Shown here piece after piece: positions 1-15,233 of a stretch of DNA of 17,357 nucleotides; the stretch's first letter is position 1; each line of letters opens with the position of its first letter. The position numbers and the translations under genes are program-made. The DNA is taken from positions 1 through 17,357 of the IMG/VR virus record IMGVR_UViG_2663762648_000006; one strand, given 5' to 3'. The stretch comes from a virus (taxonomy: Duplodnaviria > Heunggongvirae > Uroviricota > Caudoviricetes). The notes under the pieces are model-generated. The model did not search any database and had not been told where the DNA came from. It saw nothing but the letters and a program-made list of their open reading frames with translations.

Positions 1-868
1 CGGTGTTCTGCACCATGTGCAACGGCACCCGGAACAGACGACAGATTTCTTCAAGCTGAAACTTGCGGGTTTCCAGGAACTGGCTGTCCTCGGCGTTCAG
101 CGCCATCGACTTCCAGTCCAGCCCCATCTCAAGGATCATCGGGCGGTGAGCATTGCCAAGCCCGGTGTGACGCTCCTCAAAATCTTTCTTCAGGCGCTCA
201 TAAGCCTGATCTGACAGCGTCTGCTCTGTACGCAACACACCGGACGTCACCGCACCATTGCTGAACAGTCTGGCCCCGTGCTCTTCGGTCGCTGCCGCCA
301 GCGATATTGCCTCGCGGGCATAGGCGATGGGATTCAGCCCCACCAGACCGTCCAGCGTCAGCGTGCGCACATGCCAGATATCTTCCTGGCTCAGTACATC
401 CGTGGAACCGTCCGGGAATGTGACCTGATAGACCGGCTCCCAGCGACTGTTAAGCTTCGGTACCACACAACCGGGATCGACGGGCAGCAGTTCAGCCACT
501 TCGCCAAATGCTTTCACTTTGTAGGCGTAAAAGTTCCCCCTCAGGCACAGACAGGTGACCACCAGCTCCCAGAACTCCTGCGGCGTCATATAGCCATTGG
601 GATGCGTGGAGATCAGCTTATGCAGACGTTCGCCGGTGGCCCTCTGTTTCAGGCTGCCGTTCAGGTGATACAGATTGCAGGGCAACATCCCGACCGACTC
701 TGCCAGCACTCTGACGCAGGAAAAAACCGCCGTCAGTCGCATGGCCCGCTGACTGCTGATCTGCTTTCCGGTATAGGTGTCGTAAGACAACCCGATGGCA
801 TCCGCCAGCTCTGCTGGCGTGGTCACCGGCACGTCACTTTTTCGTTGAAATAATCCCGAAAAGAACAC
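1..868 (-). CDS. Phage portal protein, HK97-like (partial; C-terminus runs off the window)
   Basis: Minus-strand frame is open from a GTG at 868 to position 1, with GGAGG 6 nt upstream. The translation ([26 protein letters not shown]...LHMVQNT) looks like a portal N-terminus and it sits directly downstream of the large terminase. It is missing from the ORF track only because it is truncated. Confidence 0.8.
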   Translation of the reverse strand, partial: MFFSGLFQRKSDVPVTTPAELADAIGLSYDTYTGKQISSQRAMRLTAVFSCVRVLAESVGMLPCNLYHLNGSLKQRATGERLHKLISTHPNGYMTPQEFWELVVTCLCLRGNFYAYKVKAFGEVAELLPVDPGCVVPKLNSRWEPVYQVTFPDGSTDVLSQEDIWHVRTLTLDGLVGLNPIAYAREAISLAAATEEHGARLFSNGAVTSGVLRTEQTLSDQAYERLKKDFEERHTGLGNAHRPMILEMGLDWKSMALNAEDSQFLETRKFQLEEICRLFRVPLHMVQNT

Positions 869-1050
869 TATTTACCTCCGCCGACAGACTGCCGTGTACG
901 GTCGAGATATCGCGCCACCAGCCACGACCAGAACAGGCACAGCACCCCGGCAACAACAAAACCCGCCGGGGGATAAATCAGCCAGGCACCATACGCCAGC
1001 AAAAGCGCACCCAGCACGCCCACCAGTGGCGCGAGAATTATCAGAAACAT
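868..1050 (-). CDS. Small hydrophobic membrane protein (two predicted TM segments) between terminase and portal
   Basis: 60-aa ORF with GAGG 5 nt upstream of the ATG. Its stop overlaps the portal GTG (TAGTG). Strongly hydrophobic sequence ([24 protein letters not shown]...). Confidence 0.5.
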
Positions 1051-1061
1051 AATGACCTCGG

Positions 1062-2819
1062 TTAAAGCGAGCGGATGCCCACGCTGATCAGATGTTCAGA
1101 CAGATCCAGCTCCGGTTCACCACCATTGACCAGCATCCGGCTCATTGCTGTAAACATCGCAACAGGGCCGTCGATTTTGGCTTCCAGCGTGGATTTATTC
1201 GGGAAGATATTGTCGTTTTTGTCCGGTTTTACCGTAACGTTAGACATCATCCAGTTCATGACCGGATGATTGCTGTGATGGAAACGCCCGGCATAGACCA
1301 GTGATTCCGTTTCCTTCATGGCCTCTGACAGATTGCGAACCGTCTGCGGAACCTCCACCAGCGGTATCCCTTCTTCAGCCAGTGCCAGGCTGAACTGCAT
1401 CGCGCTCCACGGGTCAAATCCCAGTTCCCTGAGGTTTTCACCACCAATCCATTCCAGTAAGTCACTTTTTATCTGAGCATGATCGATAACATCACCATCC
1501 GTCAGAATCAGCTTATCCATCTCCGCCCACTTCCGGTAAAGTTCTGCCTGCTGCCGCGAGCATCGTTCCAGCCGTCCTTCCGGAAGCCAGAATTTAAAAT
1601 CGGCATGAACATGCCCGTTATCCGTTCGCCAGAGTTTTGCCGCCGCACAGATATCAATCTTATGAGCAAGGTCAACGCCGACCCACATGGGATACGTTTT
1701 CAGCTCATGTCGTGGGGCAATGTATTCGCACTTCTCCCACTTAATCATGTCCATCCAGGCAGACTCTGCTGTTACCCACACATTCATGTGTTTGGTAAAA
1801 AAATTCACCCGCGCAGAGACCTGTTCTTTCGCTTTTTTCGCCAGGCGACGCAGATCATCCCAGCGTTTACAGATGCCCAGGCCGGGATTCGCTTTCTGCC
1901 AGACCGTTTCATCAAACGGATCATCTCCCTCATCGAGGGTGTAAATAATCGCAAAGTAGGAGTCGTCTTTTACCGCGCCCTCCACGTCGCTGTTATAGCC
2001 ACGCAATACCTTGATGGCGTAATCACGCTGCTCGTAACAAATCCCTTCCTTGTTAAACCCTGCCGTGGTGATACCAAATAAAAGGGACTGCAGACGGGCA
2101 CCGGTTGCCGTTTCCAGAACGTCCCACACGTCACGGGTTTTATGTGCATGCAGCTCATCAATAATGGCGCAGTGGATGTTCAGACCATCCAGGTTGTTTG
2201 CATCCGAAGAAAGCGGTTCAAATTTTGATGCGCTCTGCTCCTGGTAAATCGCCAGCTTGTTGAAATCAAACAACCGCCCGAGTGTCGACCGGGCTTTTCT
2301 GACCATATTTTTGGCGTCTTCAAACACGATTCTGGCCTGGTCACGCGTGGTTGCGGCTGAATACACCTCAGCTCCGCCTTCACCATCTGCCCCCGTCATA
2401 TACAGGCCGATACCCGATGACAGAGTTGATTTTGCGTTTTTACGGGCGACTTCGTTGTACGCCGTCCGGAACCGGCGCACCATCACCGGACGTCCGCTGC
2501 CATCGCTGCGCATGACAACTTCCCCGGTCTCTTCATTGACCAGCGGAATGACAAAACCAAAAATATTAATGAGGATAAATACATGCCAGTCCATCAACTC
2601 AATGGGCTGGCCTGCCAGCGCCCCTTTTACATGAGGCACAAATTTGTAGAAATTCAGGATGTGCTGCGCACGGGGTTCACTGAAATAAATCCCCCGCTCT
2701 TCGCCGTACTTCAGATCATCAAGAAAACGCTGGCAGGCCAGGCGGACAAATTCGCCAGCAACAATTTCTCCTGCAACAACACGTTCGGCGTAGCGGATCC
2801 CGTCAGCCACTTTTGCCAT
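1062..2819 (-). CDS. Terminase large subunit
   Basis: 585-aa ORF with ATGA start/stop overlap to the upstream small subunit gene. Size, position and sequence character fit phage TerL; the family call is recollection-based. Confidence 0.93.
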
Positions 2820-3301
2820 CAGTCTCTCGCTTTTAAAAGCTCCGCCAGCGGATCAACATCATCCGGTCCGGCGATATTTACTTTAGCCCGGCTTGCCGGT
2901 GACATACCAAACTCTGCAAGCATTGCCCGGATCCGCTTCCAGGCATCCGCTTTCATTGCCGCCGCGGGGTGCGCCTTAATCAGTACATCACCGCTCTGCG
3001 TTTCCGTGCGGTAGGTATACCCCTCAACATCGAGTGTTTCGCAGTGATGCCGATATTCGGTGTAGGCTTCCACCAGCAGCTCGAGCGCACGCGCATCAAG
3101 CTGAGAAATGATCCCTTCCGCATTCAGCTCTTCCGCCATTCGCCTGAACCAGTACTTCCCCTGAGCCCCTAAATGCTGCGGAATTTTAGGAAGACCTTTT
3201 TCATCCTTTTTAGCGGTTTTTTTGTGGTCTTTAACGGGGCGCTTTGAGGGGTTACCTCGAATCAAATGCAGGCGTGGCGGGGTTTTCGGAGGTCCTGACA
3301 T
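2819..3301 (-). CDS. Terminase small subunit (P27-like)
   Basis: 160 aa with a basic N-terminus, immediately upstream of and overlapping TerL. Confidence 0.8.
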   Translation of the reverse strand: MSGPPKTPPRLHLIRGNPSKRPVKDHKKTAKKDEKGLPKIPQHLGAQGKYWFRRMAEELNAEGIISQLDARALELLVEAYTEYRHHCETLDVEGYTYRTETQSGDVLIKAHPAAAMKADAWKRIRAMLAEFGMSPASRAKVNIAGPDDVDPLAELLKARD

Positions 3302-3449
3302 AATCGGTCTTACCTATCAATCGTTTGTTCACATTTCCAAAAAAAAGTTTTCGAACCTGCGGCGATGTGAGGAAGGGTCAGGCGGCGGTACTGAACAGCC
3401 AGGGTTGCAGAGATTTGACCCGCCCCTCCCCTGCAGATGGGAGCTGTTA

Positions 3450-3800
3450 TCAATTGATGCGTTCGCGCGCTGTTTTTGCTTTATGACAGGGCCAGCACAG
3501 ACTCTGCAGGTTACTGTCTGCATCCGTGCCACCATGAGCTTTCGGAATGATGTGGTCCACAGTTCTGGCTTCAACGGCTCTCCCATTGCGCAGGCAGTTC
3601 TGACACAGATGATTATCACGCTTCAGTATGCGCGCACGTATGGCATCCCATTTCGAGCCATAGCCACGCTGGTGGCGGCTCAGTCCGCGTTGATGCTGTA
3701 CCCATCCTTCGCCACGATGTTTATCGCAGTAACCAGAACTGTCTGTGGTTGTACCTGCACATCCACGCTTACGGCAGGCGCGGGGGGTTAGTGCTGGCAT
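3450..3800 (-). CDS. HNH endonuclease (packaging-associated)
   Basis: 116 aa, cysteine-rich, with an HNH-like motif (DHIIPKAHGG...CWPCH). Its position just upstream of TerS is typical of HK97-like cos phages. Confidence 0.88.
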   Translation of the reverse strand: MPALTPRACRKRGCAGTTTDSSGYCDKHRGEGWVQHQRGLSRHQRGYGSKWDAIRARILKRDNHLCQNCLRNGRAVEARTVDHIIPKAHGGTDADSNLQSLCWPCHKAKTARERIN

Positions 3801-3938
3801 GTTTCGCCCTTATATAAATCAAAGGTGACCTGCATTGAGTATCTCCATGGAATAGATTTGCTGCTGATATGAGACAGATCAATAGACTTCATGAGCCAAC
3901 GGGTGTAGATATTACTTTTTACTTCAGAGGGTTAACTC

Positions 3939-4478
3939 ATGGATATTAAAGATAAAATCAATACCATTTTGTTATGTGACATTGCCATCCACCTAGGTAT
4001 CGAAACTGATATTGATCCACAGCTTGTTAAATATGCTGTGTCATCTGGTAATGATTGGGTTATCAAGGCCGAATATTCACATTTGGATGTTGACGAACCA
4101 AGTAAAGAAGATCGTGATTTTGTTACTGCTGTCTTGAATATGTATCGCGGACTTTCCAATGCTTTCAGGAAACTTAGTGATGACGAGCAAAAAGAATTAG
4201 TCCGTGACCATCATCTAAAAATACATGATGGGGCAATTCAGCTCCCAGGTTTCGACGGTAATAATGAATGCGATTACTTCAGTATCATTGAGGCATATCA
4301 GAAAATTGATCGCTTCCCCGAACAGAAACAGCCCATTGCCAATACTCATTCACGTACAGAACATCTCTATAACGCAATGCTTGATGAGTTTAAGAAAATT
4401 GACGCTGTAAATCGAAGCTGGGATTTATCGAAGGAAGAACTGGCATCCATTCTTTCCACAGCTCCACGCAGTTTCTAA
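3939..4478 (+). CDS. YfbU-family (UPF0304-like) protein; moron antisense to the late operon
   Basis: 179-aa ORF with AGAGGG 8 nt upstream. Local GC is visibly lower than the flanks. Blocks resemble my recollection of E. coli YfbU (NMYRGLS, GFDG, C-terminal LSKEEL...IL). A stem-loop follows the stop. Confidence 0.65.
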   Translation: MDIKDKINTILLCDIAIHLGIETDIDPQLVKYAVSSGNDWVIKAEYSHLDVDEPSKEDRDFVTAVLNMYRGLSNAFRKLSDDEQKELVRDHHLKIHDGAIQLPGFDGNNECDYFSIIEAYQKIDRFPEQKQPIANTHSRTEHLYNAMLDEFKKIDAVNRSWDLSKEELASILSTAPRSF

Positions 4479-4483
4479 GTGCT

Positions 4484-4750
4484 TTAGGCGGGTTTCCAAC
4501 CCGCCTTATTATGCTCGTATATAGAGAAGGAAGCACCCAAATTAACCAGCGCGGATTTCTTTTCCTCAATACGGCTGTTAAGTTCAGCAACTGCATGCGG
4601 GCGTATGGCCTCAAGAAAAGCACTATATTGATAGGCAGACTGGATTGTCACACCAAGCCCTGCACCACTTTCCAGTATACCTTTCTGTCGCTGTAGCTCT
4701 TTCATCTCGTTATAGATGTAATGTGCGTTACTTAGGTTTTCTACGTTCAC
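4484..4750 (-). CDS. Hypothetical protein (GTG start; doubtful)
   Basis: 88-aa ORF co-directional with the late operon, but its 3' end is encoded by the terminator hairpin of the opposite gene and there is no convincing RBS. Confidence 0.3.
   Translation of the reverse strand: MNVENLSNAHYIYNEMKELQRQKGILESGAGLGVTIQSAYQYSAFLEAIRPHAVAELNSRIEEKKSALVNLGASFSIYEHNKAGWKPA
4487..4510 (+). terminator. Stem-loop after the YfbU-like gene (8-bp GC-rich stem, 3-nt loop, then TTATT)
   Basis: ggcgggtt-tcc-aacccgcc is read directly from the sequence. The U-tract is weak. Confidence 0.45.
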
Positions 4751-4905
4751 GCCCTAAGTTCTTCCTGCAGTTAGCCTGCACTGATTTGTTATGCGCCAAT
4801 ATGTCCCGCTTCGTCTGTTGCATTATCATAAGTAATAGCGTAGGTTGACACCTTGGCTCTCTTTCGCCACCGGCGAATCTTTAGCGGATTATCCTTGGCC
4901 GGTTT

Positions 4906-5388
4906 TTATCTGAGACATTGCTCACGAATGTATAGCTGTGCCCCTTCCAGTTGCTTCTGCATCGTCATCAACCGTTCTCTGAGGGTGAAATAATCCCGTT
5001 CAGCGGTGTCTGCCAGTCTGGGGCTGGTTGCATTATCCACGCTGGTGGGTCCGGTGGCTTCACGCACGGCTGCGGAGCAACTGGCATTGACCCGCAGGCG
5101 CTTACGACCAGCGGCAACATCAGCGCGCAGAGTTTCATTTTCAGCTTTCGCATTGGCTAATTCTCTCGAGTACTTTGCATCGAGCGCAGCAACATCACGC
5201 TGACGCTGCTGCATGTCAGCGATGGTGGCGGTCAGCTGCTTCAGCTCACTGACTTTTTTATCACGCTGTTCTTTGTAGGTGATGGCGTTATCACGGTAAT
5301 GATTGACCGCCCACGACAGGCAGACGATGATGCAGATAACCAGAGCATAAATAATCGCGGCGACTCTGCTCACTGATCTATTCCCCAA
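4906..5388 (-). CDS. Rz-like i-spanin
   Basis: 160 aa with an N-terminal TM segment and a charged coiled-coil-like body, immediately after the endolysin, with an embedded +1-frame lipoprotein ORF. Confidence 0.88.
4968..5153 (-). CDS. Rz1-like o-spanin lipoprotein, embedded in Rz
   Basis: 61 aa with a lipobox (LVVSAC) and a proline-rich body, wholly inside the Rz gene in another frame. Confidence 0.82.
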
Positions 5389-5903
5389 CAGGCTAATGCG
5401 CTTTCTTGGTCACGACGAATAACCTGTCCATAGCAGTTATTTGAACGTATGCGGCAATCGCGCCCACCATCTTTTATCCACCAGCGAATCGCCTCGCATG
5501 CGCCCTTACGATCACCAGCATTCAGCCGCTTATAAAACGTCGATGGAAAACACTTACCGGGGCCAATGTTATAGGGACAAAATGACGCGATACCCGCTTT
5601 TTGTGGTTCGGTCAGTGGTACTTTAATATTGCGCTCCACCCATGCCAGCGCCTTATCACGCTCAATGGCGTTGACCTGGTCGCATTTTTCCTTCGACAGT
5701 TTCATACCGGGAAAAACGGGTTTTCCATCCACCATCGTGGCACCCCGACAGATGGTCCAGATGCCGGAACCATCGCGGTATGCCGTTGTGTGGTTACCTT
5801 CTTTTTCATCCAGAAACTGGTCGAGAATATCAGGCGCGGGCGCACCGACGGCAATCAGTGCCAGAACGGCAGCCGACAGGCCGTATCTGATTTTTGCGTT
5901 CAT
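5370..5903 (-). CDS. Endolysin, lysozyme-type with N-terminal signal-anchor-release (SAR) domain
   Basis: 177 aa. A hydrophobic Gly/Ala-rich N-terminus is followed by a T4-lysozyme-like Glu/Asp/Thr motif ([20 protein letters not shown]). It pairs with a pinholin as in phage 21. Confidence 0.88.
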
Positions 5904-5966
5904 GGATATTTATCAGGATTTATCGGTTTCTGCCCACGGACAGGTTTATCTGTTCCGGTCAGTGAC

Positions 5967-6317
5967 TTAAGGTTGTGATTCCGGAGGAGTCTTCAGAGAA
6001 CCAGTAATTCTTCCTGGTAGCTTTCCTTTGTAGGTTATCCACACATTCTGCGCCTCTAAAATTACGGGGCGCTTTTCCGGCGACTGCTCATCCCCTTCAC
6101 ATAACCCGGCAGCAACATCCAGGAAGACCTGTCTGATGCTCCTTCTGGCTGCTGCCTCATAAAACTCCAGCGCGGCACCTTCAACACGGTCCAGCGAGAT
6201 GTCCAGGTCAAAAATTTCACCGTCAAAGCGTTTTTTGTCCCGTAACGCTAAAGTTACCGTAACTTTATTCTCAAAATTGCGGATCCCTTTCACAATCAGT
6301 TCATAGTTTTGAGTCAT
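5967..6317 (-). CDS. Hypothetical protein inserted between holin and endolysin
   Basis: 116-aa soluble ORF with a 4-nt gap to the holin stop. It may correspond to small DUF proteins found between essQ and rrrQ in cryptic prophages, but I could not verify that. Confidence 0.55.
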   Translation of the reverse strand: MTQNYELIVKGIRNFENKVTVTLALRDKKRFDGEIFDLDISLDRVEGAALEFYEAAARRSIRQVFLDVAAGLCEGDEQSPEKRPVILEAQNVWITYKGKLPGRITGSLKTPPESQP

Positions 6318-6321
6318 TGAA

Positions 6322-6537
6322 TTACTCTCCCCGTGCAGCCTTACGCTTGTCTTCTCTGATTTTGAAGTACAGATTTGTCAGATAAGTCAGGAAGCCCAGA
6401 ACCAGACTCCCCAGTACACCAATCGCAGCCCACTGTGACGGACTGACCTGATCAAGCCACTGTAAAAACCAGTAGCCAGCACTGCCTGCGGAGGTGCCAT
6501 AGGCAATGCCCGTTGAAATTTTGTCCATGGATTTCAT
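6322..6537 (-). CDS. S: Class II holin, phage 21 S-type pinholin with dual-start motif
   Basis: 71 aa starting MKSMDK, nearly identical to my recollection of S21 (…[26 protein letters not shown]…). GGAGGTGAG precedes the start. Confidence 0.9.
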
Positions 6538-6594
6538 AGCCTCACCTCCGCAAATAACGGATGGCGTAGTTTTACACTGAGAAATGAAAGGGAT

Positions 6595-6622
6595 TTGAAA
6601 AGAAAAGCCCGCAAAAGCGGGC
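6595..6622 (-). terminator. Rho-independent terminator (tR'-like) between the tRNA cluster and the holin
   Basis: Minus strand reads GCCCGC-TTTT-GCGGGC followed by TTTTCTTTTC. Confidence 0.7.
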
Positions 6623-6829
6623 GAAACAATATATACAGTAAGGAAAGCACTCTATCCAACAAACCACCCACAGTTAATCGGAATAAAAGCAGAGTGCTTA
6701 TGAATGATCGCCTGCCCGAAGGTTAGTATTTCTGCACAGCAATTTTGCAAAAAAAAGCGATCATTCATAACTTAAACGTCTTTCAGTCACTCCGGGATTT
6801 CCCATCATCGCAGACTGAAAGACTCTAAC

Positions 6830-6904
<75 letters not shown>

Positions 6905-6907
6905 ATA

Positions 6908-6983
<76 letters not shown>

Positions 6984-6985
6984 AC

Positions 6986-7062
6986 TGGACCGCCACCGGG
7001 GACTCGAACCTCGCACACTCAACTTAAAGGGTTGACGCTCTTTCCTGATGAACTGGTGACGG
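6986..7062 (-). tRNA. Atypical tRNA-like gene (anticodon loop CCTTTAA, nominally UUU; possibly degenerate)
   Basis: 77 nt with encoded CCA and a T-loop TTCGAGT, but C at position 8, C at position 33 and a T-stem mismatch. It lies 1 nt downstream of the tRNA-Ile-like gene. Confidence 0.4.
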
Positions 7063-7063
7063 T

Positions 7064-7139
7064 TGGTGGCCCTTGCTGGATTTGAACCAGCGACCTGGCG
7101 ATTATGAGTCGCTCGCTCTCACCACTGAGCTAAAGGGCC
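7064..7139 (-). tRNA. ileZ: tRNA with CAU anticodon, tRNA-Ile2 (lysidine) type, ileZ-like
   Basis: 76-nt clean cloverleaf: acceptor GGCCCTT/AAGGGCC, anticodon loop CTCATAA, T-arm GCTGG-TTCAAAT-CCAGC, CCA. It closely resembles my recollection of E. coli ileX and of the tRNA carried by Stx-type phages. Confidence 0.8.
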
Positions 7140-7148
7140 GGGCGCAGG

Positions 7149-7177
7149 ATAATAACGTTACGAAATCAATGTTGCAA
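7149..7177 (-). promoter_or_regulatory. Sigma-70 promoter (pR'-like) driving the tRNA cluster
   Basis: Minus strand has TTGCAA, a 17-nt spacer, then TATTAT. The predicted start is about 7 nt upstream of the first tRNA 5' end. Confidence 0.6.
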
Positions 7178-7254
7178 GCATTCAAAAATCACCTGGTTAA
7201 AAATCACCCTTAGCTCCTCCACCAGCGCATTCACCATGTCTATCCGAGATAAGT

Positions 7255-7296
7255 GGCACAAAAAAACCCGCTTGTGGGCGGGTTTTGTTTGCTTTT
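7255..7296. terminator. Bidirectional Rho-independent terminator downstream of the Q-like gene
   Basis: AAAAAAA-CCCGC-ttgtgg-GCGGG-TTTTGTTTGCTTTTG: hairpin flanked by an A-run and a T-run. Confidence 0.65.
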
Positions 7297-7349
7297 GCCA
7301 TCACGTACAAAATCGGCAAAATATCAGATTTGCATGAAATATATGCCTT

Positions 7350-8039
7350 TCAATCTACTTTTGCAACACTTTGCTTTGAAAATGCCGCCTTTTGTTTTGA
7401 ACGTGTTCTCATTACAAACAATAAAGCCTCACTATCCAGTCGTTGAAAAATGTGTTTCATTGCAACCCAGTGACGAGTAAATGTTTTGGACCAGTTTTTA
7501 GTTGTCACTCCCGCCAGTAATGCCAGCTCCTGGTATTCATAACCTTCCCCACCAAAAAGTTCTGCTTTTACTGCCTGCGCCGCCAGCCAGATTAATTTTT
7601 TCAGGCGTTCCTGCGTTTTCCCTGCAATTTTTCTGGTACCGGATTGAGTATTAAATTCATTCCACGCCCACTGTGTTATCGCGATCTGATATTCCCAACA
7701 AATACTCTCGCCGTAACACCACAACAACCAGGCTTTATGATGCTCTTCAAGAGACAGCAAAGCCCGCCGCCATGATGATGTCGAAAACTCAACCGGGCTG
7801 ACCAGGGCAATTGATGAGCCATTCGCCAGTGATTGTTTTCCCGGGATTGGTGGATTATCCCGCGTTATCATTTTTCCAGTCACTTCATCGCGGTACCGGA
7901 TTTTTTTTCGCCTGTAACGCCCTGTATCGAACATGGCATTCTCCTGCCAGGCTTCAAGCTGACCTTTTGTTGCCCCACTCAAATCAGCGGTGGCGATAAT
8001 GAGCTGCTCACGCACAAACTGTAAATACTGGTTATTCAT
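7350..8039 (-). CDS. Putative late-gene antiterminator (Q-like); assignment by position only
   Basis: 229 aa from the ATG at 8039, which overlaps the rusA stop (ATGA). It is the last gene before the terminator, promoter, tRNAs and lysis cassette. I do not recognise the sequence as a specific Q family. Confidence 0.45.
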   Translation of the reverse strand: MNNQYLQFVREQLIIATADLSGATKGQLEAWQENAMFDTGRYRRKKIRYRDEVTGKMITRDNPPIPGKQSLANGSSIALVSPVEFSTSSWRRALLSLEEHHKAWLLWCYGESICWEYQIAITQWAWNEFNTQSGTRKIAGKTQERLKKLIWLAAQAVKAELFGGEGYEYQELALLAGVTTKNWSKTFTRHWVAMKHIFQRLDSEALLFVMRTRSKQKAAFSKQSVAKVD

Positions 8040-8401
8040 GCGCACTCCAGTTCTGTGATTTTTATCCCCAGCCGCCCACCAGGAACGAGCTGACCGCGCA
8101 CAATATTGATTTCATCAAACTGCTCGTCGTCTATGAGTAGTCCGGCATGCGTCAGCGCATCCAGTGGTGCTTTCAGGATATTGTCCAGGTCACGACGGCG
8201 CTTATCCGGTGGCTCTGCAATAATCTTTATCGCCAGCCTTCCGGACAGGTTTAATTTCAACCGCTGCTGGCGAACAATTAGCGCCACATCATGGCGATAA
8301 CGCTTTCCGGCCTCCGAGATGAAATACGTATTGCCATGACGTCGCCAGTAGGTATTCACCGTCGGCGGGTAAGGCAAAACAAATTCTATGCGTTCAGTCA
8401 T
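8036..8401 (-). CDS. rusA: Holliday junction resolvase RusA
   Basis: 121 aa with motifs matching my recollection of RusA (PPTVNTYW, DKRRRDLDN...K...DALT). Confidence 0.88.
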   Translation of the reverse strand: MTERIEFVLPYPPTVNTYWRRHGNTYFISEAGKRYRHDVALIVRQQRLKLNLSGRLAIKIIAEPPDKRRRDLDNILKAPLDALTHAGLLIDDEQFDEINIVRGQLVPGGRLGIKITELECA

Positions 8402-9457
8402 TCATGCTTTCCACTTCAGGACACCCGAATTTCTCGCGTGCATTAAAAAACGAATCAGCAACAACAGCTGGCTGCCGTGTTTTTCTTCAAAATCTTTTAC
8501 CCCGGCGTGCAGTTCGTTATGACATTTACGGCACAGCGGAATAACAAACAAATCATCAGCCTTTGTTCCCATCCCTCCCAGTCCATGACCAATGATGTGA
8601 TGCGGATCATCTGCCTGATTACCGCACGTCATGCATTTCTGCGTTTTTACCCAACGCGTGTATACAGGCATCTCTTCCCGTTGTGGTTTCTGGCGCTGGA
8701 GATACTGAGCCGGTGACTCCGGATCAACGGCAATGCTGACCACCGTCTTTTCCTGTGGCGGGTTTTGCTGGTGGGCATGAGGCAACGGCGCAAGATTTTT
8801 TGTGCGCTGCTTCAGTATGCTGGTGGCGGTCTGCTCTCCCGGTACGATGTCGCTTTCGCGGTACAAGGAGCGGATTTTTTCCGCACGTAACCCCAGAGAA
8901 CGACGTAATACTGCCTCCGGAAGCGCGTCCGCCACCTGATTGCAGACCGCCCACCAGGATAATTCAGCCAGCGACAATTCCCGCTCCTGCGTGCCATTCA
9001 TTGCATGGCGTATGACGTCAATCATCCATGCTGACAGGTTTTGATGAGCAAGTTGCCCGAGTGATTCGGATGTCTGGTCACGCAACTGGTTGTCGCAGTG
9101 CCAGCACAACACCATCGCGCCGGTACCGTAACGATGTATGACGATTTCACTGTGATGATAGTCACCATGAGGCCACTGGCAGGATTTGACATGACGCAAC
9201 AGCCAGTCAGACAGTGCCCCAGCGCCGCCAGCAGCACGAATCACCCGCTCATCGCTGAAAAATGGCAGTAATGATTTATCCTCCGCCAGCGGCTGGCGAA
9301 CGGCAGGGACGACTCCGGACGGCAGACCGCGCATGCTTTTCGGTTCAGGCTCCACCAGCACTCGAGGGTTATGAAATACTTGCATGGATTCACGGCCCGG
9401 CCTAAGGACCACCAGCCCGAGTTCCGGTACCAGAACAGGTCGAAGTAATATCCGCAC
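8402..9457 (-). CDS. DUF968-like prophage protein with C-terminal HNH/zinc-finger-like motif (YdfU-like)
   Basis: The long ORF reaches 9529, but a GTG at 9457 has GGAGG 5 nt upstream and sits 1 nt after the upstream gene's stop, so I prefer that start. The C-terminus carries CMTCGN...HHIIGHGLGG...CRKCHNELH. Confidence 0.65.
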   Translation of the reverse strand: MRILLRPVLVPELGLVVLRPGRESMQVFHNPRVLVEPEPKSMRGLPSGVVPAVRQPLAEDKSLLPFFSDERVIRAAGGAGALSDWLLRHVKSCQWPHGDYHHSEIVIHRYGTGAMVLCWHCDNQLRDQTSESLGQLAHQNLSAWMIDVIRHAMNGTQERELSLAELSWWAVCNQVADALPEAVLRRSLGLRAEKIRSLYRESDIVPGEQTATSILKQRTKNLAPLPHAHQQNPPQEKTVVSIAVDPESPAQYLQRQKPQREEMPVYTRWVKTQKCMTCGNQADDPHHIIGHGLGGMGTKADDLFVIPLCRKCHNELHAGVKDFEEKHGSQLLLLIRFLMHARNSGVLKWKA

Positions 9458-9458
9458 G

Positions 9459-9737
9459 TTACCTCCAGATCCGTTGCTGGTATGTGCGGGATGGGCGCGG
9501 TGGGCGTTCGGAATAAGGGAGCCTGACATAGATTATCCAGTGACGATAATCGAGGCTGAGGGCTTTCTTAATCTCGTATCCGCGTCTGCGATAGTTATGA
9601 ATTAGCCATTCGGCCTGTTCTTCAGTACATGGGTCATGCTGGAACCAGTCAGATTTGAAAGTGCGGGAACGCCGCCCGTGCCTGCTGGCAAAGACGGCAG
9701 AATCATCAGAATTGTGTAATTTGGTATCGTGCGCCAT
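9459..9737 (-). CDS. Hypothetical nin-region protein (92 aa from internal ATG)
   Basis: The ORF extends to 9818 with an alternative start; the first ATG is at 9737. Same strand and tightly packed with the DUF968 gene. Confidence 0.45.
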   Translation of the reverse strand: MAHDTKLHNSDDSAVFASRHGRRSRTFKSDWFQHDPCTEEQAEWLIHNYRRRGYEIKKALSLDYRHWIIYVRLPYSERPPRPSRTYQQRIWR

Positions 9738-9814
9738 CGGTTGTCTCTGCTGGCGCAGCAGGTGCCAGTTGTTCAGGCTGGCGTGCGAATTGTAAACCAG
9801 AATGCCAGGAAAAA

Positions 9815-9843
9815 ACAAAACCCGCCGAAGCGGGTATGCTAAA
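9815..9843 (-). terminator. Rho-independent terminator after the lipoprotein gene
   Basis: Minus strand reads CCCGC-TTCG-GCGGG followed by TTTTGTTTTTT. The same motif recurs at the 3' ends of both hok copies. Confidence 0.65.
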
Positions 9844-10033
9844 ACAAACTGAAAGTAATATACCGGACTTGTAAAGGAACGATAGAATAATTATTGGATT
9901 AAACCCTGACTCAATCCAGATTTTATAGGCAACAACTACGGACTAATCATCACAGTCATGTTTGATAGGCTTAGTCCACATTGGGTGAGGGTTTACGGCG
10001 TTTTCACTAATAATTTATCGTCCAAGCTATACA

Positions 10034-10426
10034 CTACTGCCCTGTTTTAACGAAGTTTTTAAAGGAAACAACTGCCTGATAGGGGTTTGGTTGACAGCCA
10101 AACATATTATCGCAAAAAGGCTTGATGAAAATTCTTGAGGATCCATCTTCATTTGGCATTTTACTCACTTGATAAGCGAGGAATGGACTATTTGGAGAGG
10201 GATTATAAGTGGAAATTAGCGTGTCTGTCGCCGTTTGAATTTTCCATGAGGAATTATTAGCCAACCAGAATTGCGCTCGTTTCCAATAAAAGTCACATTG
10301 CTTTTCATCATTACATGTTAGTGGCTTCATTGCTTCTGCTTTCAACGCTGGATCGACCTTTGCTGCACACCCTCCCAACATTACTGTTGCAATCATTACA
10401 CCTGCGACTAAAACAAGTTTCTTCAT
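10034..10426 (-). CDS. Secreted lipoprotein (moron); possible superinfection-exclusion or surface-modifying factor
   Basis: 130 aa with a signal peptide and lipobox (VMLGGC), four further cysteines, and markedly low-GC DNA. It has its own terminator. Confidence 0.7.
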   Translation of the reverse strand: MKKLVLVAGVMIATVMLGGCAAKVDPALKAEAMKPLTCNDEKQCDFYWKRAQFWLANNSSWKIQTATDTLISTYNPSPNSPFLAYQVSKMPNEDGSSRIFIKPFCDNMFGCQPNPYQAVVSFKNFVKTGQ

Positions 10427-10569
10427 CTCCCTGCCCCATCAATAAAAGTTCGGTTCTCTAATAACTAGAGTTAATCAACGGAAAAAACGCCGAAGCGGGT
10501 TAAGTGCGGGTGCGTTGAGGATGCCTGACACATCAGAGGTGGCGAGGGATTTCTCCCCCGCCAGGTCTC

Positions 10570-10782
10570 TTACTCCTCAGGTTCGTAAGCTGTGAAGACA
10601 GCGACCTCCGTCTGGCCGGTTCGGATTCGTACCTCGCAGAGGTCTTTCCTCGTTACCAGTGCCGTCACAATGACGGTTAAACAGATGACGATCAGGGCGA
10701 TTAACATCGCCTTTTGCTGCTTCATAGCCTGCTTCTCCTTGCCTTTCGGCACGTAAGAGGCTAACCTAGATTTGCCGTTCAT
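10570..10782 (-). CDS. hok: Mok/Hok-family type I toxin, copy 1 (Hok/Gef-like 51 aa from the internal ATG at 10725)
   Basis: C-terminal 51 aa (MKQQKAMLIALIVICLTVIVTALVTRKDLCEVRIRTGQTEVAVFTAYEPEE) matches Gef/HokC as I recall it. AAGGAG precedes the internal ATG. The in-frame upstream extension resembles MokC. Confidence 0.85.
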   Translation of the reverse strand: MNGKSRLASYVPKGKEKQAMKQQKAMLIALIVICLTVIVTALVTRKDLCEVRIRTGQTEVAVFTAYEPEE

Positions 10783-10978
10783 AGATTGAGCCTCAGATTA
10801 ATGTTAAGCGTCTTGCAGCAATTCTACTTAAGTATTTTTGATTCTATTCCGGCACCATCTAAAACTTCAAACGCGTTGAAAATAAAAACAAAAACCCGCC
10901 GAAGCGGGTTAAGTGTGGGTGCATTGAGGATGCCTGCCCCATCAGAGGTGGCGAGGGATTTCTCCCCCGCCTGGTCTC

Positions 10979-11191
10979 TTACTCCTCAGGTTCGTAAGCT
11001 GTGAAGACAGCGACCTCCGTCTGGCCGGTTCGGATTCGTACCTCGCAGAGGTCTTTCCTCGTTACCAGTGCCGTCACTATGACGGTTAAACAGATGACGA
11101 TCAGGGCGATTAACATCGCCTTTTGCTGCTTCATAGCCTGCTTCTCCTTGCCTTTCGGCACGTAAGAGGCTAACCTAGATTTGCCGTTCAT
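10979..11191 (-). CDS. hok: Mok/Hok-family type I toxin, copy 2 (identical protein)
   Basis: Translation is identical to copy 1 and lies in the second unit of the tandem duplication. Confidence 0.85.
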   Translation of the reverse strand: MNGKSRLASYVPKGKEKQAMKQQKAMLIALIVICLTVIVTALVTRKDLCEVRIRTGQTEVAVFTAYEPEE

Positions 11192-11387
11192 AGATTGAGC
11201 CTCAGATTAATGTTAAGCGTCTTGCCGGACGCGTAATGTTAACTGGGGCTTTTCTCTATCTGCCTTTGGTGTTCATGCCTGAGGCAGATAGCCTCAAGCA
11301 CCCGCAGCAATTCTACTTAAGTTAGATAAGCTTTTCTATGGTATTCTCTCAGCGTCCCGTAAATACAGTCTCGGCTCATCATTTTTA

Positions 11388-11645
11388 TCACAGGTGCGAG
11401 GAAAATATATAGCGCCCTCCATCAAGCATAACGAAATACATTTTCCATTCATCGCCATTCCTCAATTTAATACGAAGACTTTCCCCGCAAGTGTATTTAT
11501 TAAACAACTGTTCCGATGTGCTAGTAAGAGGTATTTTTACCGTTATTACAACTACTGCCCCACCATTTAACTCTCGAAGTTCAGCATCCGCATCCACAAA
11601 AGATGAATAAATGTTATGATCTGGGTAATCAACAATTAACTGCAT
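11388..11645 (-). CDS. Hypothetical protein, low-GC orphan
   Basis: 85 aa from an ATG with AAGGAG 5 nt upstream. Very AT-rich DNA; no recognisable motif. Confidence 0.5.
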   Translation of the reverse strand: MQLIVDYPDHNIYSSFVDADAELRELNGGAVVVITVKIPLTSTSEQLFNKYTCGESLRIKLRNGDEWKMYFVMLDGGRYIFSSHL

Positions 11646-11783
11646 ATTCACTCCTTAAATATAGCAACTAAAACAAACAACGATTTAACAGTAGGAATTG
11701 TTTTTATAACATATGAACGGTGCAAGATCTATCCAGATGAAGCCTCCCCTCACACCCCCGTCTCATTACATGCATTTACTATC

Positions 11784-12299
11784 TCACCGTAAAACATCCT
11801 CCACGCTTATCAGTCCGTTTCGCTTCAGGTAGTCCATCGCCTTCTCCGGTAATTTGCAGTCCGGCTTGGCTTTTTTCAGTTGGCTGACCAGTCGTTTAAC
11901 CCACATTGTTAATTCGCTAACCTGATTGCCGGAAGCTGGTGGGTTGTCGGCTTTACCCAGAATGACAGCACTGCAGGCCTCTTTGAGTACCCAATCAACA
12001 GCATCTTTCCATGCTCCTGTTTCGACTGGTGGATTCTCACGCTTTACCTGTTCATAAAAGCGCACGGCTTTAACCAGTCCTTCTGATGTCAGTGGCACAG
12101 GCGGGGCAGTGAATAACGCCTGAATTTCATAGCTCGGCCTGTCGTTGCAATCCTCTTTTGTCGGTACATATTTCCAGTCACCAACCCACGGCTCCCCCTG
12201 TGAGTCCGTAATGCCTTTTTTCACGTAGCGATATCGCCATGCAACTGGTTTTGCCTGCCCTGCCGTTTCATGTCCTTCCTGATAATTAATCTCGCTCAT
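11784..12299 (-). CDS. Hypothetical phage early protein
   Basis: 171-aa ORF with ATGA overlap to the upstream gene. Confidence 0.6.
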   Translation of the reverse strand: MSEINYQEGHETAGQAKPVAWRYRYVKKGITDSQGEPWVGDWKYVPTKEDCNDRPSYEIQALFTAPPVPLTSEGLVKAVRFYEQVKRENPPVETGAWKDAVDWVLKEACSAVILGKADNPPASGNQVSELTMWVKRLVSQLKKAKPDCKLPEKAMDYLKRNGLISVEDVLR

Positions 12300-12472
12300 T
12301 CATCGCCCCACTCATCACAATATGCTTCGACCGGAGTTTTTCCTGCTTCGTAGTCATAACGCCATGCTTCAGCATCAGCGGCACTTCCACCGCGTAACTC
12401 TGCATAGTCCATTAACAGTTCATGCCATTCTTCAAAACTGACGTTGTATTTAGTTGAACCAAAATCAGCCAT
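12296..12472 (-). CDS. Hypothetical small acidic protein
   Basis: Internal ATG at 12472 with AGGAGG 9 nt upstream; overlaps neighbours at both ends. Confidence 0.5.
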   Translation of the reverse strand: MADFGSTKYNVSFEEWHELLMDYAELRGGSAADAEAWRYDYEAGKTPVEAYCDEWGDE

Positions 12473-12647
12473 TTTGTTCTTCCTCCTCATCTTTTATTTC
12501 GTGATATGAGTAATTGCAGTAGTTAAAGAAAATTTCTTTTGCTTCGTCCTGTATTTCATCTGGTGTCGCACCATCATCCACTTCGAATACATCCTCAAAA
12601 TCTCCACCAGCTATTCCCGTTTCAATAATTATTCTGAACTTTCGCAT
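12465..12647 (-). CDS. Hypothetical small acidic protein
   Basis: 60-aa ORF in the same operon-like array. A GC hairpin lies just upstream of the start. Confidence 0.45.
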   Translation of the reverse strand: MRKFRIIIETGIAGGDFEDVFEVDDGATPDEIQDEAKEIFFNYCNYSYHEIKDEEEEQNG

Positions 12648-12742
12648 TTCATTACCGCCCTTTCGGGCGGCCTCCTGATGTTCTGAGGGTGCAGAAATCC
12701 CTCCGGTTAAGGATTAAATTTTATTTACAACACTAAATTTAA

Positions 12743-12943
12743 TTATTCAGGCGCGCGAATCTGTTCCGCACAATGCAACAATGCTTCTGTCACTTCCTTA
12801 AGCGTTACGGTATCGGCATCATCCAGTCCTGCAACTTTTGCGTGCCTGGCAAACGCCGCGCAAAGGTCGTTAAACGCCACCGCCCGTACATCAGCTAGGA
12901 AAGCGTTAGCAGCAGCCAATTCCTGGTAGTCAATCCTGCTCAC
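12743..12943 (-). CDS. Hypothetical small protein
   Basis: 66-aa ORF whose start overlaps the upstream gene's stop. Confidence 0.45.
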   Translation of the reverse strand: MSRIDYQELAAANAFLADVRAVAFNDLCAAFARHAKVAGLDDADTVTLKEVTEALLHCAEQIRAPE

Positions 12944-13365
12944 TGCGCCGCCTCCTGAAAATTCCCCTGATAGAAAGCCAGTACACGCTGCATAACTTCA
13001 CTATTCCGGCACTCGCGACAGATTATGTTCAGACGCCTGTCATAGCGGCGTATTTCTCCGTCTGGTAACGACCAGATAAGGTCCGGATCAACCACAGATG
13101 TTTTTTTCTTCAGCTTTGCCCTTGAGAGTTTTTTGCGGGCATTTTGCCAGTCCTTACGAGCCTGTTCAGACGGGAATAACCCGTAACCAGAGTTGTATAC
13201 ATCGCCACTGGCAACCAGCTCTCTGGCAAGAACGCTCATCAGATATCTTGTTGCCCCAGTTTTAGCTTCCAGTTGTCGTAACGTCTCGCGCCCACTCTGG
13301 CGTACGAGTTCAACAACCTGCCCTTTAATTTTTTCCCGCTCTTCTTGTGTAAAAACTTTTGCCAC
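12940..13365 (-). CDS. Hypothetical basic protein downstream of the replication initiator (possible replication accessory or DNA-binding protein)
   Basis: 141-aa lysine/arginine-rich ORF at the position P or ren would occupy in lambda. No family recognised. Confidence 0.55.
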   Translation of the reverse strand: MAKVFTQEEREKIKGQVVELVRQSGRETLRQLEAKTGATRYLMSVLARELVASGDVYNSGYGLFPSEQARKDWQNARKKLSRAKLKKKTSVVDPDLIWSLPDGEIRRYDRRLNIICRECRNSEVMQRVLAFYQGNFQEAAQ

Positions 13366-13405
13366 AAGCCCTCCTGAAAATTACCTCATGACCAGAAATT
13401 AACAC

Positions 13406-14482
13406 TTACCCCCTGAAGCCCGGCGGAATTTCGTTATCCGGTTCAGAAATATGATTCACACAACGCTGGTTGTTCGTGCCGCTTACCGGGAGCAACCAGG
13501 GGTTCTCAAAATTCCGGTCCGGTCCAAAAAACGTCGTCGCTCGCTGAACAAATTCCGTTCCCGTTTTCCCGGTAGCCGCCAAGTATCTTGCGTAACGCCT
13601 CACGCCATCCAGCATGGCCTCTGGTGGCACCCCCTCGCGTAATCTGGCCTTCCAGGCACTGAAAGCGGATTTCTTCGGGTTTGCTCCGGCACGCAACGGG
13701 TACTCCCGCCAGACCTGTTCGAACGCATCCGGATAATCCACTCGTCCCACAGACAGCCCGGTGTTTTCCGGGACTACCCGATCGGCTTTCCGCTGAATGG
13801 CGGAATCGGCTTCAGGCTGCTGCAGTTGGAGTGATTGCTCCGGCCTTGCGGTCATCACCTGCTGCACAGCGCCCGAATCGGCTTTCAGCGCATACGCTGA
13901 ATCGGCTTCCGGTGTCGTGCCTGCTGGCTGACCAGGATTGACGGTCTGAACATCCCCTGCCTGGTTCGTGGCGTTTTTTACGCCATGGACCATAGTGTTT
14001 TGATCTTCTTGATCTGTATCTTTATCTGTATCTTTATCTGTCGTGACTCGTCGTGACATGTGCGTGACATTTCGTGACGCGCCGTGACAATCGCCATTTT
14101 GTTCCCGCTTTCTTTCCCTCTCTCGCTGCGCCCTCTTGCGCTCTGCAGGAGATTTTGCGGTTTGCGAAATATTGCCGTTGTCCTCTTTAAGCACCTGGCG
14201 TTTTTCCCATCCAGTGATTAAATCACCATCAAGTACCCGCCCCTGCATCGTCTGCAAAATTGAATCAATTACCTCTTCTGTCACGTCGAGCGCACTTGCC
14301 AAATCTTCTGTCGTGACATCAATGTGACCTCGCGTGACATTTCGTGACGCGCTCACCAGGAGGTGGATATACACTGCCATCACTGTTGCAATTGGCTGCC
14401 CTGACACCCTGGCAATTGTTCGCCACTTAGGGTCATTTGGCATGTCATGCCATAATCTGAGCCAGGCGTTAGCCATACTCAC
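13406..14482 (-). CDS. Replication initiator (O-like; possibly YdaU/DUF1376-type) containing the origin iterons
   Basis: 358 aa, third gene after the Cro-like and YdaT-like genes as in Rac. Two iteron arrays lie inside the N-terminal half of the gene, as ori-lambda lies inside O. Confidence 0.6.
   Translation of the reverse strand: MSMANAWLRLWHDMPNDPKWRTIARVSGQPIATVMAVYIHLLVSASRNVTRGHIDVTTEDLASALDVTEEVIDSILQTMQGRVLDGDLITGWEKRQVLKEDNGNISQTAKSPAERKRAQRERERKREQNGDCHGASRNVTHMSRRVTTDKDTDKDTDQEDQNTMVHGVKNATNQAGDVQTVNPGQPAGTTPEADSAYALKADSGAVQQVMTARPEQSLQLQQPEADSAIQRKADRVVPENTGLSVGRVDYPDAFEQVWREYPLRAGANPKKSAFSAWKARLREGVPPEAMLDGVRRYARYLAATGKTGTEFVQRATTFFGPDRNFENPWLLPVSGTNNQRCVNHISEPDNEIPPGFRG
14042..14088. 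repeat. Iteron array 1: five CGTGAC repeats at 10-11 bp spacing (putative origin)
   Basis: CGTGAC at 14042, 14052, 14063, 14073 and 14083. A TCTGTATCTTTA tandem repeat lies just upstream (14005-14040). Confidence 0.65.
14280..14348. repeat. Iteron array 2: four to five (C/T)GTGAC repeats including one inverted copy
   Basis: GTCACG at 14280; CGTGAC at 14312, 14333 and 14343; TGTGAC at 14324. The 20-mer CGTGACATTTCGTGACGCGC is shared with array 1. Confidence 0.6.
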
Positions 14483-14547
14483 CTCTTCTGATACCGAATC
14501 TTTTTACTCACGAGTTGCCGGAAGCGATTCGATATGGCTATTGTCAG

Positions 14548-14973
14548 TCAATGTACTGCCACAGCATTTCCTGCCGGGCCACCACGGTTCATCTGATTGA
14601 AACCGGCGATTGCCACTGCGACAAAATCATCAGCGTCTCTCACCAGTCGTTCATGCGTCTCCACCAGTTCCCGAAAATAAGCTGAACTGTGGCTGCGCAT
14701 TCGAGCCACCAGCGGAGGTGGCATTGCCCTTTCGATCGCAGGTAACAACGCCTGAATTTTTTCAACAGCGTCAGGGGTGTCTTTATCCAGCCAACGGAAA
14801 ATCTTTTGGGTGTTGAGATAAAGCGTGTTGTGCTTGCTGTCGTTATGCAGAACCGGAAACGTCATTCCCAGTTCGAAATAAACCCTGGTTATTTCAGCTG
14901 CCGGAACTTTTTCACCGTCCGGATGCGCCCAGGCTTTCATCGCCATGCGGATGTGTTCATGCTTGATTTTCAT
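14548..14973 (-). CDS. ydaT: YdaT-like protein (CII-position regulator of Rac-type prophages)
   Basis: 141 aa starting MKIKHEHI, as I recall for Rac YdaT; it directly follows the Cro-like gene. Confidence 0.7.
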   Translation of the reverse strand: MKIKHEHIRMAMKAWAHPDGEKVPAAEITRVYFELGMTFPVLHNDSKHNTLYLNTQKIFRWLDKDTPDAVEKIQALLPAIERAMPPPLVARMRSHSSAYFRELVETHERLVRDADDFVAVAIAGFNQMNRGGPAGNAVAVH

Positions 14974-15233
14974 GAATCAACCCCCGCCGATGGTTGTGTG
15001 TTAGCCTGAAACTCAGCAGGCAAGCCGTCAGTTGGGTTGGGGTAGGTTTTACTGTCAATCTCATGTGGGGTCACCACCCATCCCGTTGCTTCACACCAAC
15101 GTAATATTTTTTCTCCTGTAAGTTTTGCACGCCCCGTTATAACGTGGCTGACCATCCCTTGGGATGCGCCAACAATCTCAGCAAATGAACTCTGGGTTAT
15201 ATGAAAATGATGCAAATATTCTCCAAGATTCAT
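14970..15233 (-). CDS. Cro/YdaS-like HTH regulator
   Basis: 87 aa from the ATG at 15233 (the ORF extends to a TTG at 15260). HTH-like segment SQGMVSHVITGRAKL. Divergent from the repressor gene. Confidence 0.7.
   Translation of the reverse strand: MNLGEYLHHFHITQSSFAEIVGASQGMVSHVITGRAKLTGEKILRWCEATGWVVTPHEIDSKTYPNPTDGLPAEFQANTQPSAGVDS

Follow-up and report, generated by a model that had tools for sequence, protein, structure and literature searches.

What occupies the short gap between the transfer RNA (tRNA) genes and the lysis genes of a phage, at the position where Shiga toxin (Stx) phages carry their toxin genes? The question is raised by IMG/VR record IMGVR_UViG_2663762648_000006 (Caudoviricetes), of which positions 1 to 17,357 were analyzed (the whole of this stretch is referred to as the window). 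Read along its minus strand, the region contains the antiterminator gene Q, a pR'-like promoter, a terminator, a second promoter, four tRNA genes (7139-6830), the gap, and the holin gene. From tRNA-Gly (6830-6904, minus strand) to the start of the holin at 6537, the gap measures 292 bp (6538-6829), in agreement with the roughly 290 bp given in an initial annotation of this DNA. That annotation regarded the gap as the counterpart of the toxin slot of Stx phages, an analogy that is correct, as the cluster has a homologue in the ileZ-argN-argO genes of Stx2 phages, which are followed by stx2AB. Contrary to what had been proposed, however, the slot is not empty, because a conserved non-coding RNA occupies it. 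The gap holds a conserved, strand-specific, covarying RNA structure that is under purifying selection and tied to the 3' end of the tRNA cluster. This element is very probably a functional structured RNA encoded on the minus strand.

The RNA structure in the gap

The gap contains a perfect 14-bp inverted repeat, with arms TTATGAATGATCGC at 6698-6711 and GCGATCATTCATAA at 6757-6770 and a spacer of 45 nucleotides (nt). The length and the first arm had been given correctly before, but the partner had been placed at 6767-6780, with a spacer of 55 nt. A second repeat, whose position had been recognized but whose length had been understated, spans 11 bp (GTCTTTCAGTC at 6778-6788 and GACTGAAAGAC at 6813-6823), and an additional 9-bp repeat (6645-6653 and 6691-6699) had been overlooked. 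When the gap was shuffled 500 times with its dinucleotides preserved, perfect inverted repeats reached 11 bp at most, and did so once; the longest repeat per shuffle had a mode of 7 bp. The repeats, with an observed maximum of 14 bp, are real and far beyond chance.

Folding of the minus-strand RNA from 6829 to 6596 gave a stable structure of three hairpin domains and a terminator (-83 kcal/mol, z = -6.0). A fold of similar quality was obtained for the plus strand; since a palindrome folds on either strand, relatives were needed to decide which one matters. The parts of the element are as follows:

6778-6823, minus strand: optional 5' hairpin module, in which the 11-bp repeat closes an inner GGG/CCC hairpin
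6647-6770, minus strand: core of two domains, approximately 125 nt
6698-6770, minus strand: core domain 1, with helix 1 around helix 2 and a small UUCG-type hairpin
6647-6697, minus strand: core domain 2, with helix 4 (GCACUCUG/UAGAGUGC) and helix 5

Helix 1 corresponds to the 14-bp repeat, and helix 4 to the 9-bp repeat. The arms of helix 2, UUUUUGCA and UGCAGAAA, enclose a 9-nt loop, AAAUUGCUG, and this helix also contains the conserved TTGCAAAATTGCTG motif, which we refer to as block B. On the 3' side of domain 2, at 6656-6669, lies the near-invariant stretch GGGUGGUUUGUUGG. Domain 1 occurs alone in four loci.

A consensus of 45 distinct cores comprises five helices and 42 pairs. Standard pairs make up 98.1% of the pair cells in this alignment, and sliding the 3' partners by 1-3 columns lowers this share to 38-50%. 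Changes on both sides of a pair were found at nine pairs and in 104 cells, while shuffled alignments gave 39 +/- 6.5 cells and none of 500 reached 104. Helix 1 accounts for 15 pairs, 5 of them with compensatory changes (97.9% of cells paired), and helix 4 for 8 pairs, 4 of them compensatory. Among 27 distinct copies of the 5' hairpin, 3 of the 17 predicted pairs showed compensatory changes, and one pair changed from A-U to G-U in 13 of the 27. Both repeats are thus retained and covary in relatives.

The same alignment identifies the strand. The helix cells contain 225 G-U combinations against 9 A-C, and the pairing of 98.1% in sense orientation falls to 86.6% when the opposite strand is read. 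With a covariance model built from the alignment, sense-strand scores were 135-150 bits and antisense-strand scores 15-19 bits, and exactly one copy per locus was found; the window copy (6642-6774, minus) scored 145 bits and was found on the minus strand only. As G-U pairs are meaningless in duplex DNA, the repeats are helices of a transcript running in the late direction rather than DNA sites. Of the three explanations that the initial annotation had offered for the long repeat, it is therefore the RNA structure in the late leader that holds.

Relatives were collected from several sources. The gap was found at 94-100% identity in 530 of 5,426 complete Escherichia coli genomes (approximately 10%); the tRNA cluster was covered to at least 80% in 600 genomes, and the element was present in 523-530. 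Carriers include the enteroaggregative E. coli strain 042 and avian pathogenic isolates. In 30 E. coli records sampled across the ranking, no annotation was present in the gap. It was also found in four phage records, and copies of approximately 76-77% identity occur in phage HK639 and in a Salmonella prophage-like region. Scanning IMG/VR with a pattern of two conserved blocks yielded at least 120 loci. Among GTDB species representatives, matches were found in E. coli, Shigella flexneri, Enterobacter hormaechei, Citrobacter sedlakii, Yokenella regensburgei, and Phytobacter ursingii. A host origin of the element was rejected, since no homologue exists in the core genome of E. coli. Among the matches listed for the tRNA cluster, an O157:H7 genome covers 55% of it, and E. 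coli laboratory strains match with their own chromosomal tRNA genes only. This may be why small RNA (sRNA) surveys of such strains are silent on the element.

A second collection, for which we anchored the scan on GCTCATCCAAAAGCA and then used nhmmer, added 22 members. These carry single changes in the first conserved block, such as TTTTCGCA, in which a U-G pair of helix 2 becomes C-G; in this pattern-independent scan, the second block showed one insertion and one substitution. The two blocks are therefore highly conserved, but not absolutely invariant.

Constraint was also apparent among close relatives. Per-site diversity among 32 distinct full-length relatives of the window type was as follows:

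tRNA-Thr and tRNA-Gly: 0.004-0.007
5' hairpin: 0.009
core: 0.012
terminator: 0.036
holin third codon positions: 0.056
linker before the terminator: 0.086, with 47% variable columns, the most variable segment

In these relatives, variation in the element is about as low as in the tRNAs.

Linkage to the tRNA cluster

The element belongs with the tRNAs and not with the holin, as its distance is fixed to the former, while the latter varies in both distance and family. A co-directional tRNA cluster precedes it in nearly every locus with sufficient upstream sequence, and the last tRNA is tRNA-Gly(UCC) in 109 of 131 related loci. In HK639 and Salmonella, only a remnant of tRNA-Gly is left, next to an intact element. 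Block B starts 78-81 nt past tRNA-Gly in 101 loci and 22-24 nt past the tRNA end in 8 loci with Gly last. The 5' hairpin is absent from the latter, so that the core abuts tRNA-Gly there. In the long and the short architecture alike, the first helix begins 1-6 nt 3' of the tRNA end. The next gene is usually a holin, of several families and 87-880 nt away, and STnc100 sRNA modules or small open reading frames (ORFs) sometimes lie between it and the element, downstream of the latter.

The tRNA genes upstream of the element are as follows:

7064-7139, minus strand: tRNA with anticodon CAT, called Met by ARAGORN and Ile (ileZ-like) by the Prokaryotic Genome Annotation Pipeline (PGAP)
6986-7062, minus strand: non-canonical argN-like tRNA with anticodon UUU, found by ARAGORN and below the Rfam tRNA threshold
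6908-6983, minus strand: tRNA-Thr(UGU), found by ARAGORN and Rfam
6830-6904, minus strand: tRNA-Gly(UCC), the last tRNA, found by ARAGORN and Rfam

tRNA-Thr and tRNA-Gly are 99.4% identical to chromosomal tRNA-Thr and tRNA-Gly genes of E. coli, which we take to be those of the thrU-glyT region, while the promoter and the first two tRNAs (7064-7180 region) are 82-87% identical to ileZ-argN(-argO) of Stx2 phages. Judging from these matches, the cluster is a mosaic. The second tRNA is left unannotated by PGAP in E. coli 042. In relatives, loops on its argN-like scaffold read UUU (Lys), UCU (Arg), AAA/GAA (Phe), and in one case UUA, and some are 6-nt loops unreadable by ARAGORN; this slot looks like a site of anticodon switching.

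The signals that would delimit the transcripts of this region are as follows:

7350-8045, minus strand: Q antiterminator gene (Pfam PF06323, E = 2e-91)
7338-7366, minus strand: pR'-like late promoter found by consensus scan (TTGCAA-17-TATATT), overlapping the end of the Q gene
7260-7289, minus strand: first intrinsic terminator after the late promoter, found by inverted-repeat and terminator scans
7149-7177, minus strand: candidate sigma-70-type promoter of the tRNA operon (TTGCAA-17-TATTAT) with a G+C-rich discriminator; the first tRNA starts at 7139
6598-6625, minus strand: intrinsic terminator after the core, GCCCGC-UUUU-GCGGGC followed by UUUUCUUUUC (6607-6625 in the scan)
6538-6597, minus strand: holin leader with the Shine-Dalgarno region (6543-6552), outside the RNA element

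The position of the late promoter suggests that it acts as pR', and the terminator at 7260-7289 is then best read as the true tR' equivalent, with a leader RNA of approximately 70-75 nt. The initial annotation had called the terminator in the gap tR'-like. A T-tailed, terminator-like hairpin does exist there (6607-6625, minus), but it is the second terminator after pR', past the tRNAs. It is likely to form the 3' end of the transcript of the tRNAs and the non-coding RNA.

The motifs of the second promoter suggest that it is active. In 71 distinct upstream sequences, the -35 element (TTGCA/TTGCG), the 17-nt spacing, the -10 element (TATTAT/TATCAT), and the G+C-rich discriminator are conserved, while many unrelated sequence types are found farther upstream. 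A promoter kept amid unrelated upstream types argues for a mobile cassette of promoter, tRNAs, RNA, and terminator, that is, a moron, inserted downstream of tR'. Its own promoter and terminator, its position between Q and the lysis genes, and its variable cargo are all features of morons, and Stx phages carry a different cargo. The promoter-tRNA-terminator architecture noted initially is thus borne out as regards the tRNAs with their own conserved promoter and a terminator after the RNA, but not as regards the identity of that terminator with tR'.

Several further observations were made on the surroundings of the element. In the pR'-to-tR' leader (7260-7338), weak, sub-threshold Rfam matches to isrJ and isrK, two sRNAs of Salmonella prophages, were found, at 23-25 bits in the window; the isrJ match in HK639 reaches 34.6 bits against a threshold of 37, and isrJ/isrK may be the same kind of Q-region leader transcript. 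The window-type terminator is polymorphic at the boundary of its G and T runs (GCGGGC-TTTT, GCGG-TTTTTT, and GCG-TTTTTTT, with stems of 6, 4, and 3 bp) in loci that hardly differ otherwise, so that read-through into the holin may vary between strains. On the lysis side, Pfam searches identified a P21-type holin (PF04971), followed by DUF1327, lysozyme, and Rz. The 60-nt holin leader is nearly invariant among the 32 distinct relatives, and a perfect 10-bp pairing is possible between the Shine-Dalgarno region (UGCGGAGGUG, 6543-6552) and codons ~14-17 (6487-6496). The holin begins with MKSM, a dual-start motif, and the leader pairing probably provides translational control of the holin/antiholin ratio. 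STnc100 copies (RF02076, 53-134 bits) were found in HK639 (L002, 2206-2411) and Salmonella (L004, 2390-2603 and 2804-2926), each between the element and the holin and with a terminator of its own. The leader from Q to the holin thus behaves as a rack of terminator-bounded RNA modules. In E. coli 042 (L001, 3872-4000), the prophage is degraded, and its holin has been truncated by a deletion and fused to tail-gene fragments. Despite this deletion, the module of tRNAs and RNA is 100% identical to that of the window.

A proposed tRNA trailer RNA and its alternatives

The position of the element directly 3' of the last tRNA and on the same strand, which is that of a 3' external transcribed spacer (3'ETS), suggests that it is a stable non-coding RNA made from the 3' trailer of the tRNA operon. 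The promoter and terminator motifs expected of such an operon are present, as sequence evidence. In this pathway, the promoter at 7149-7177 would drive transcription of the four tRNAs and the RNA, and after induction, Q-modified polymerase coming from pR' would also read through the operon. Maturation of the 3' end of tRNA-Gly would free the 5' end of the RNA 1-6 nt ahead of a stable helix, and the terminator at 6598-6625 would set its 3' end, giving a product of approximately 200-230 nt, or approximately 175 nt without the first hairpin. The RNA would then act in trans, by base-pairing or protein binding, through the loop AAAUUGCUG with its flanks and through GGGUGGUUUGUUGG. We put this pathway forward tentatively, with promoter activity, processing, stability of the product, and action in trans all being inferred: taken as a whole, including the action in trans, we rate its chances at somewhat under even.

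Several points weigh against it. The RNA is long and tightly folded, and the prediction places most of its best-conserved stretch, GGGUGGUUUGUUGG, in pairs, whereas a typical sRNA seed is accessible. A search of the window for sites that resemble or complement the two conserved blocks gave no more than chance would, and no target or partner emerged. Judged strictly, 91 of 127 loci have a terminator after the core; another 25 (approximately 20%) have a weakened version of the same hairpin and 11 (approximately 9%) have none, and in these 25 and 11 loci the element would belong to a longer leader. At U4-C-U4, the U tail in the window is shorter than would be typical of a classical Hfq-dependent sRNA. 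Furthermore, the two conserved blocks owe part of their apparent invariance to the search pattern, and the covarying changes go back to few lineage splits, so that the number of independent events is small.

The alternative that survives best, which we consider unlikely but worth taking seriously, is that the element acts in cis as a leader of the late (lysis) mRNA. Excision of the tRNAs from a Q-antiterminated transcript would leave a 5'-monophosphate on the downstream mRNA, and the helix would protect this end against RNase E and keep tRNA processing apart from the lysis genes. The constant location of the element between the last tRNA and the lysis cassette, the 1-6 nt between tRNA and first helix in both architectures, and the persistence of the element in the 11 loci lacking a terminator would all be expected of such a stabilizer. 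A stabilizer needs a stable helix only, however, and not loops and strands conserved to the level of a tRNA. In addition, the distance is fixed to the tRNA rather than to the holin, with STnc100 modules or ORFs able to intervene; a terminator usually separates the two; and the element is intact where the holin has been deleted.

A protein-binding or decoy RNA that is tied to the tRNA cargo, as a partner of a tRNA-processing or modification enzyme or as a decoy for a tRNA-targeting defence of the host, and not as a regulator that acts by base-pairing, appears improbable to us. Its linkage to tRNA-Gly(UCC) is tight and ancient, persisting even where only a remnant is left (HK639, Salmonella), but this may reflect the common descent of one cassette. 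The fold is rigid, with multiple helices and conserved internal loops, and the anticodon switching in the neighboring slot hints at selection on tRNA function, but the element shows no likeness to a tRNA or to any Rfam family. Equally doubtful is the broader proposal that the tRNAs and the RNA form one functional cassette, in which the RNA is a structured effector working with the phage tRNAs and not a conventional sRNA, and which has spread among prophages of Enterobacteriaceae as a mobile unit of promoter, tRNAs, RNA, and terminator. Such an effector might counter host defences that target tRNAs, as a decoy or an antidote, or might tune the maturation or use of the adjacent rare-codon tRNAs.

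We regard it as very unlikely that the element is an attenuator or riboswitch-like sensor, whose fold gates the terminator and thereby controls read-through from the tRNA promoter into the lysis genes. A structured domain with a terminator within 20-60 nt and lethal genes just downstream fits this arrangement, and the window offers a possible pairing of the helix-5 loop GUGGGU with GCCCGC, the 5' arm of the terminator. Nevertheless, the terminator hairpins of different loci fall into four or more types that are unrelated in sequence, on which grounds membership of this class was rejected; together with the highly variable linker, this means that no alternative pairing is conserved. Some loci also lack a terminator, and Q-modified polymerase ignores terminators.

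The presence of two perfect inverted repeats, of 14 and 11 bp, at a known hot spot for cargo could suggest a feature acting at the level of DNA, such as a palindrome bound by a protein, a recombination site, or a scar from the gain or loss of cargo, and two of these readings had been proposed in the initial annotation. Little chance can be left to any of them. The excess of G-U over A-C cells and the compensatory changes preserve pairing rather than sequence, and the helix-1 arms stand 45-47 nt apart around conserved sequence. A scar or cargo flank was rejected, as the arms never separate: in approximately 150 related loci, they never flank cargo or other inserted DNA.

We give still less credence to a small protein. 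A 38-amino-acid ORF on the minus strand (6652-6768) and one of 43 amino acids on the plus strand exist, the peptide FLQNCC recurs in HK639 and Salmonella, and two GenBank phage records annotate the plus-strand coding sequence as a hypothetical protein. This reading was rejected on frame-shifting indels: in copies that are nearly identical, the T run ahead of the conserved block ranges in length from 6 to 8 T, and 1-nt indels at two further alignment positions separate the main lineages. Moreover, the ATG is present in the window type only and lacks a Shine-Dalgarno sequence, FLQNCC mirrors a conserved nucleotide block, and the substitutions preserve pairing. Finally, an HK022-type put RNA, in which two stem-loops act in cis on polymerase to suppress terminators downstream, in phages whose operon lacks a protein antiterminator, is unlikely, as the phage has Q, a terminator normally follows the element, and read-through would express the lysis genes in the lysogen.

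Relation to known RNAs

With Rfam 15 at the gathering score, the whole window yielded sok and three tRNAs only. At E-values up to 10, no family, including STnc100, AgvB, AsxR, Esr41, GcvB, and IsrK, matched within 6642-6823 in a search of 6300-7450. The permissive matches in the gap were weak (E 0.55-9.7) and lay over the terminator and holin leader, and a tRNA-like match starting from tRNA-Gly extended to 6819. The sok antitoxin RNA match (RF01794, 111.7 bits) is full-length and lies at 11129-11303 on the minus strand, which points to a toxin-antitoxin module of the hok/sok type in the early region; in E. coli 042, hokD is annotated at the corresponding position.

Individual candidates were also rejected. 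Local blastn of the gap against the PasA, PasB, and PasC loci from strain E2348/69 of enteropathogenic E. coli (EPEC) returned only chance matches of 10-16 nt (E >= 1). PasD, which is STnc100-like, does not match the element, nor did the STnc100 model at any threshold tried. Likeness to GcvB had been suspected from a G/U-rich seed and the shared GGUCUGCGAU, but the alignment to gcvB of MG1655 was non-significant, with 94 and 257 of 1000 shuffles scoring as high. The 5' hairpin was considered as a decayed copy of tRNA-Gly, and this too was non-significant (418 of 2000 shuffles). A literature search returned nothing relevant on the conserved strings, HK639, or tRNA genes of Stx phages, and no annotation in RefSeq corresponded to the element. 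The element represents a previously unannotated family of structured prophage RNA, whose kinds are already known: the non-coding RNA modules of the lambdoid late leader, and the trailer RNAs of tRNA operons.

Among the latter, the closest counterpart is 3'ETS-leuZ, which Lalaouna and colleagues reportedly described in 2015 as an sRNA sponge derived from the 3' external transcribed spacer of the glyW-cysT-leuZ operon of E. coli. Both follow directly after the last tRNA of an operon and are co-directional with it, and the origin of the 5' end by tRNA 3' processing and of the 3' end by the operon terminator is what we propose for the element. In contrast, 3'ETS-leuZ is approximately 50 nt, little structured, and chromosomal, whereas the element is approximately 175-230 nt, has five covarying helices, is phage-borne, and shares no sequence similarity with it. 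The species 1 and species 2 RNAs of phage T4 (rnaC and rnaD) are stable, structured RNAs of approximately 120-140 nt that are co-transcribed and co-processed with a tRNA cluster, and whose function is unknown. Like the element, they are encoded with phage tRNAs, but in a virulent phage of another lineage. Lambda 6S RNA and StxS are short pR'-to-tR' transcripts. They resemble the element in lying in the late leader region and ending at a terminator, but their counterpart in the window is the leader at 7260-7338, upstream of the tRNAs, and not the element in the gap.

STnc100 and PasD share with the element the slot between Q and the holin, the direction of late transcription, and the bounding terminator, and in HK639 and Salmonella STnc100 and the element lie side by side; however, the Rfam model of STnc100 (RF02076) gives no match to the element, and STnc100 has no tRNA attached to it. 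In EPEC, the sRNA PasD is abundant and associated with Hfq (PMC8550237; bioRxiv 10.64898/2026.05.13.724894). PasA, PasC, and the moron-site sRNAs of enterohemorrhagic E. coli (EHEC) and EPEC are likewise prophage non-coding RNAs near the holin, at the cargo site downstream of pR' (PMC4104026, PMC8550237), but the EHEC prophage sRNAs are described as convergent at the moron site (PMC4104026), whereas the element is co-directional with late transcription. The rrA, rrB, and rrF sRNAs, which lie between the dual terminators of E. coli rRNA operons (PMC8144298), are small RNAs from the tail of a stable-RNA operon as well; they differ in belonging to chromosomal, ribosomal operons and in being made by terminator read-through.

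Toxins and regulatory sRNAs with which prophages rewire their hosts are encoded in accessory regions downstream of Q, and the element adds a further RNA family to that slot. As far as its sequence context indicates, it would exemplify a phage operon whose products include a structured RNA besides the tRNAs, and it is a candidate family for Rfam and for genome annotation.

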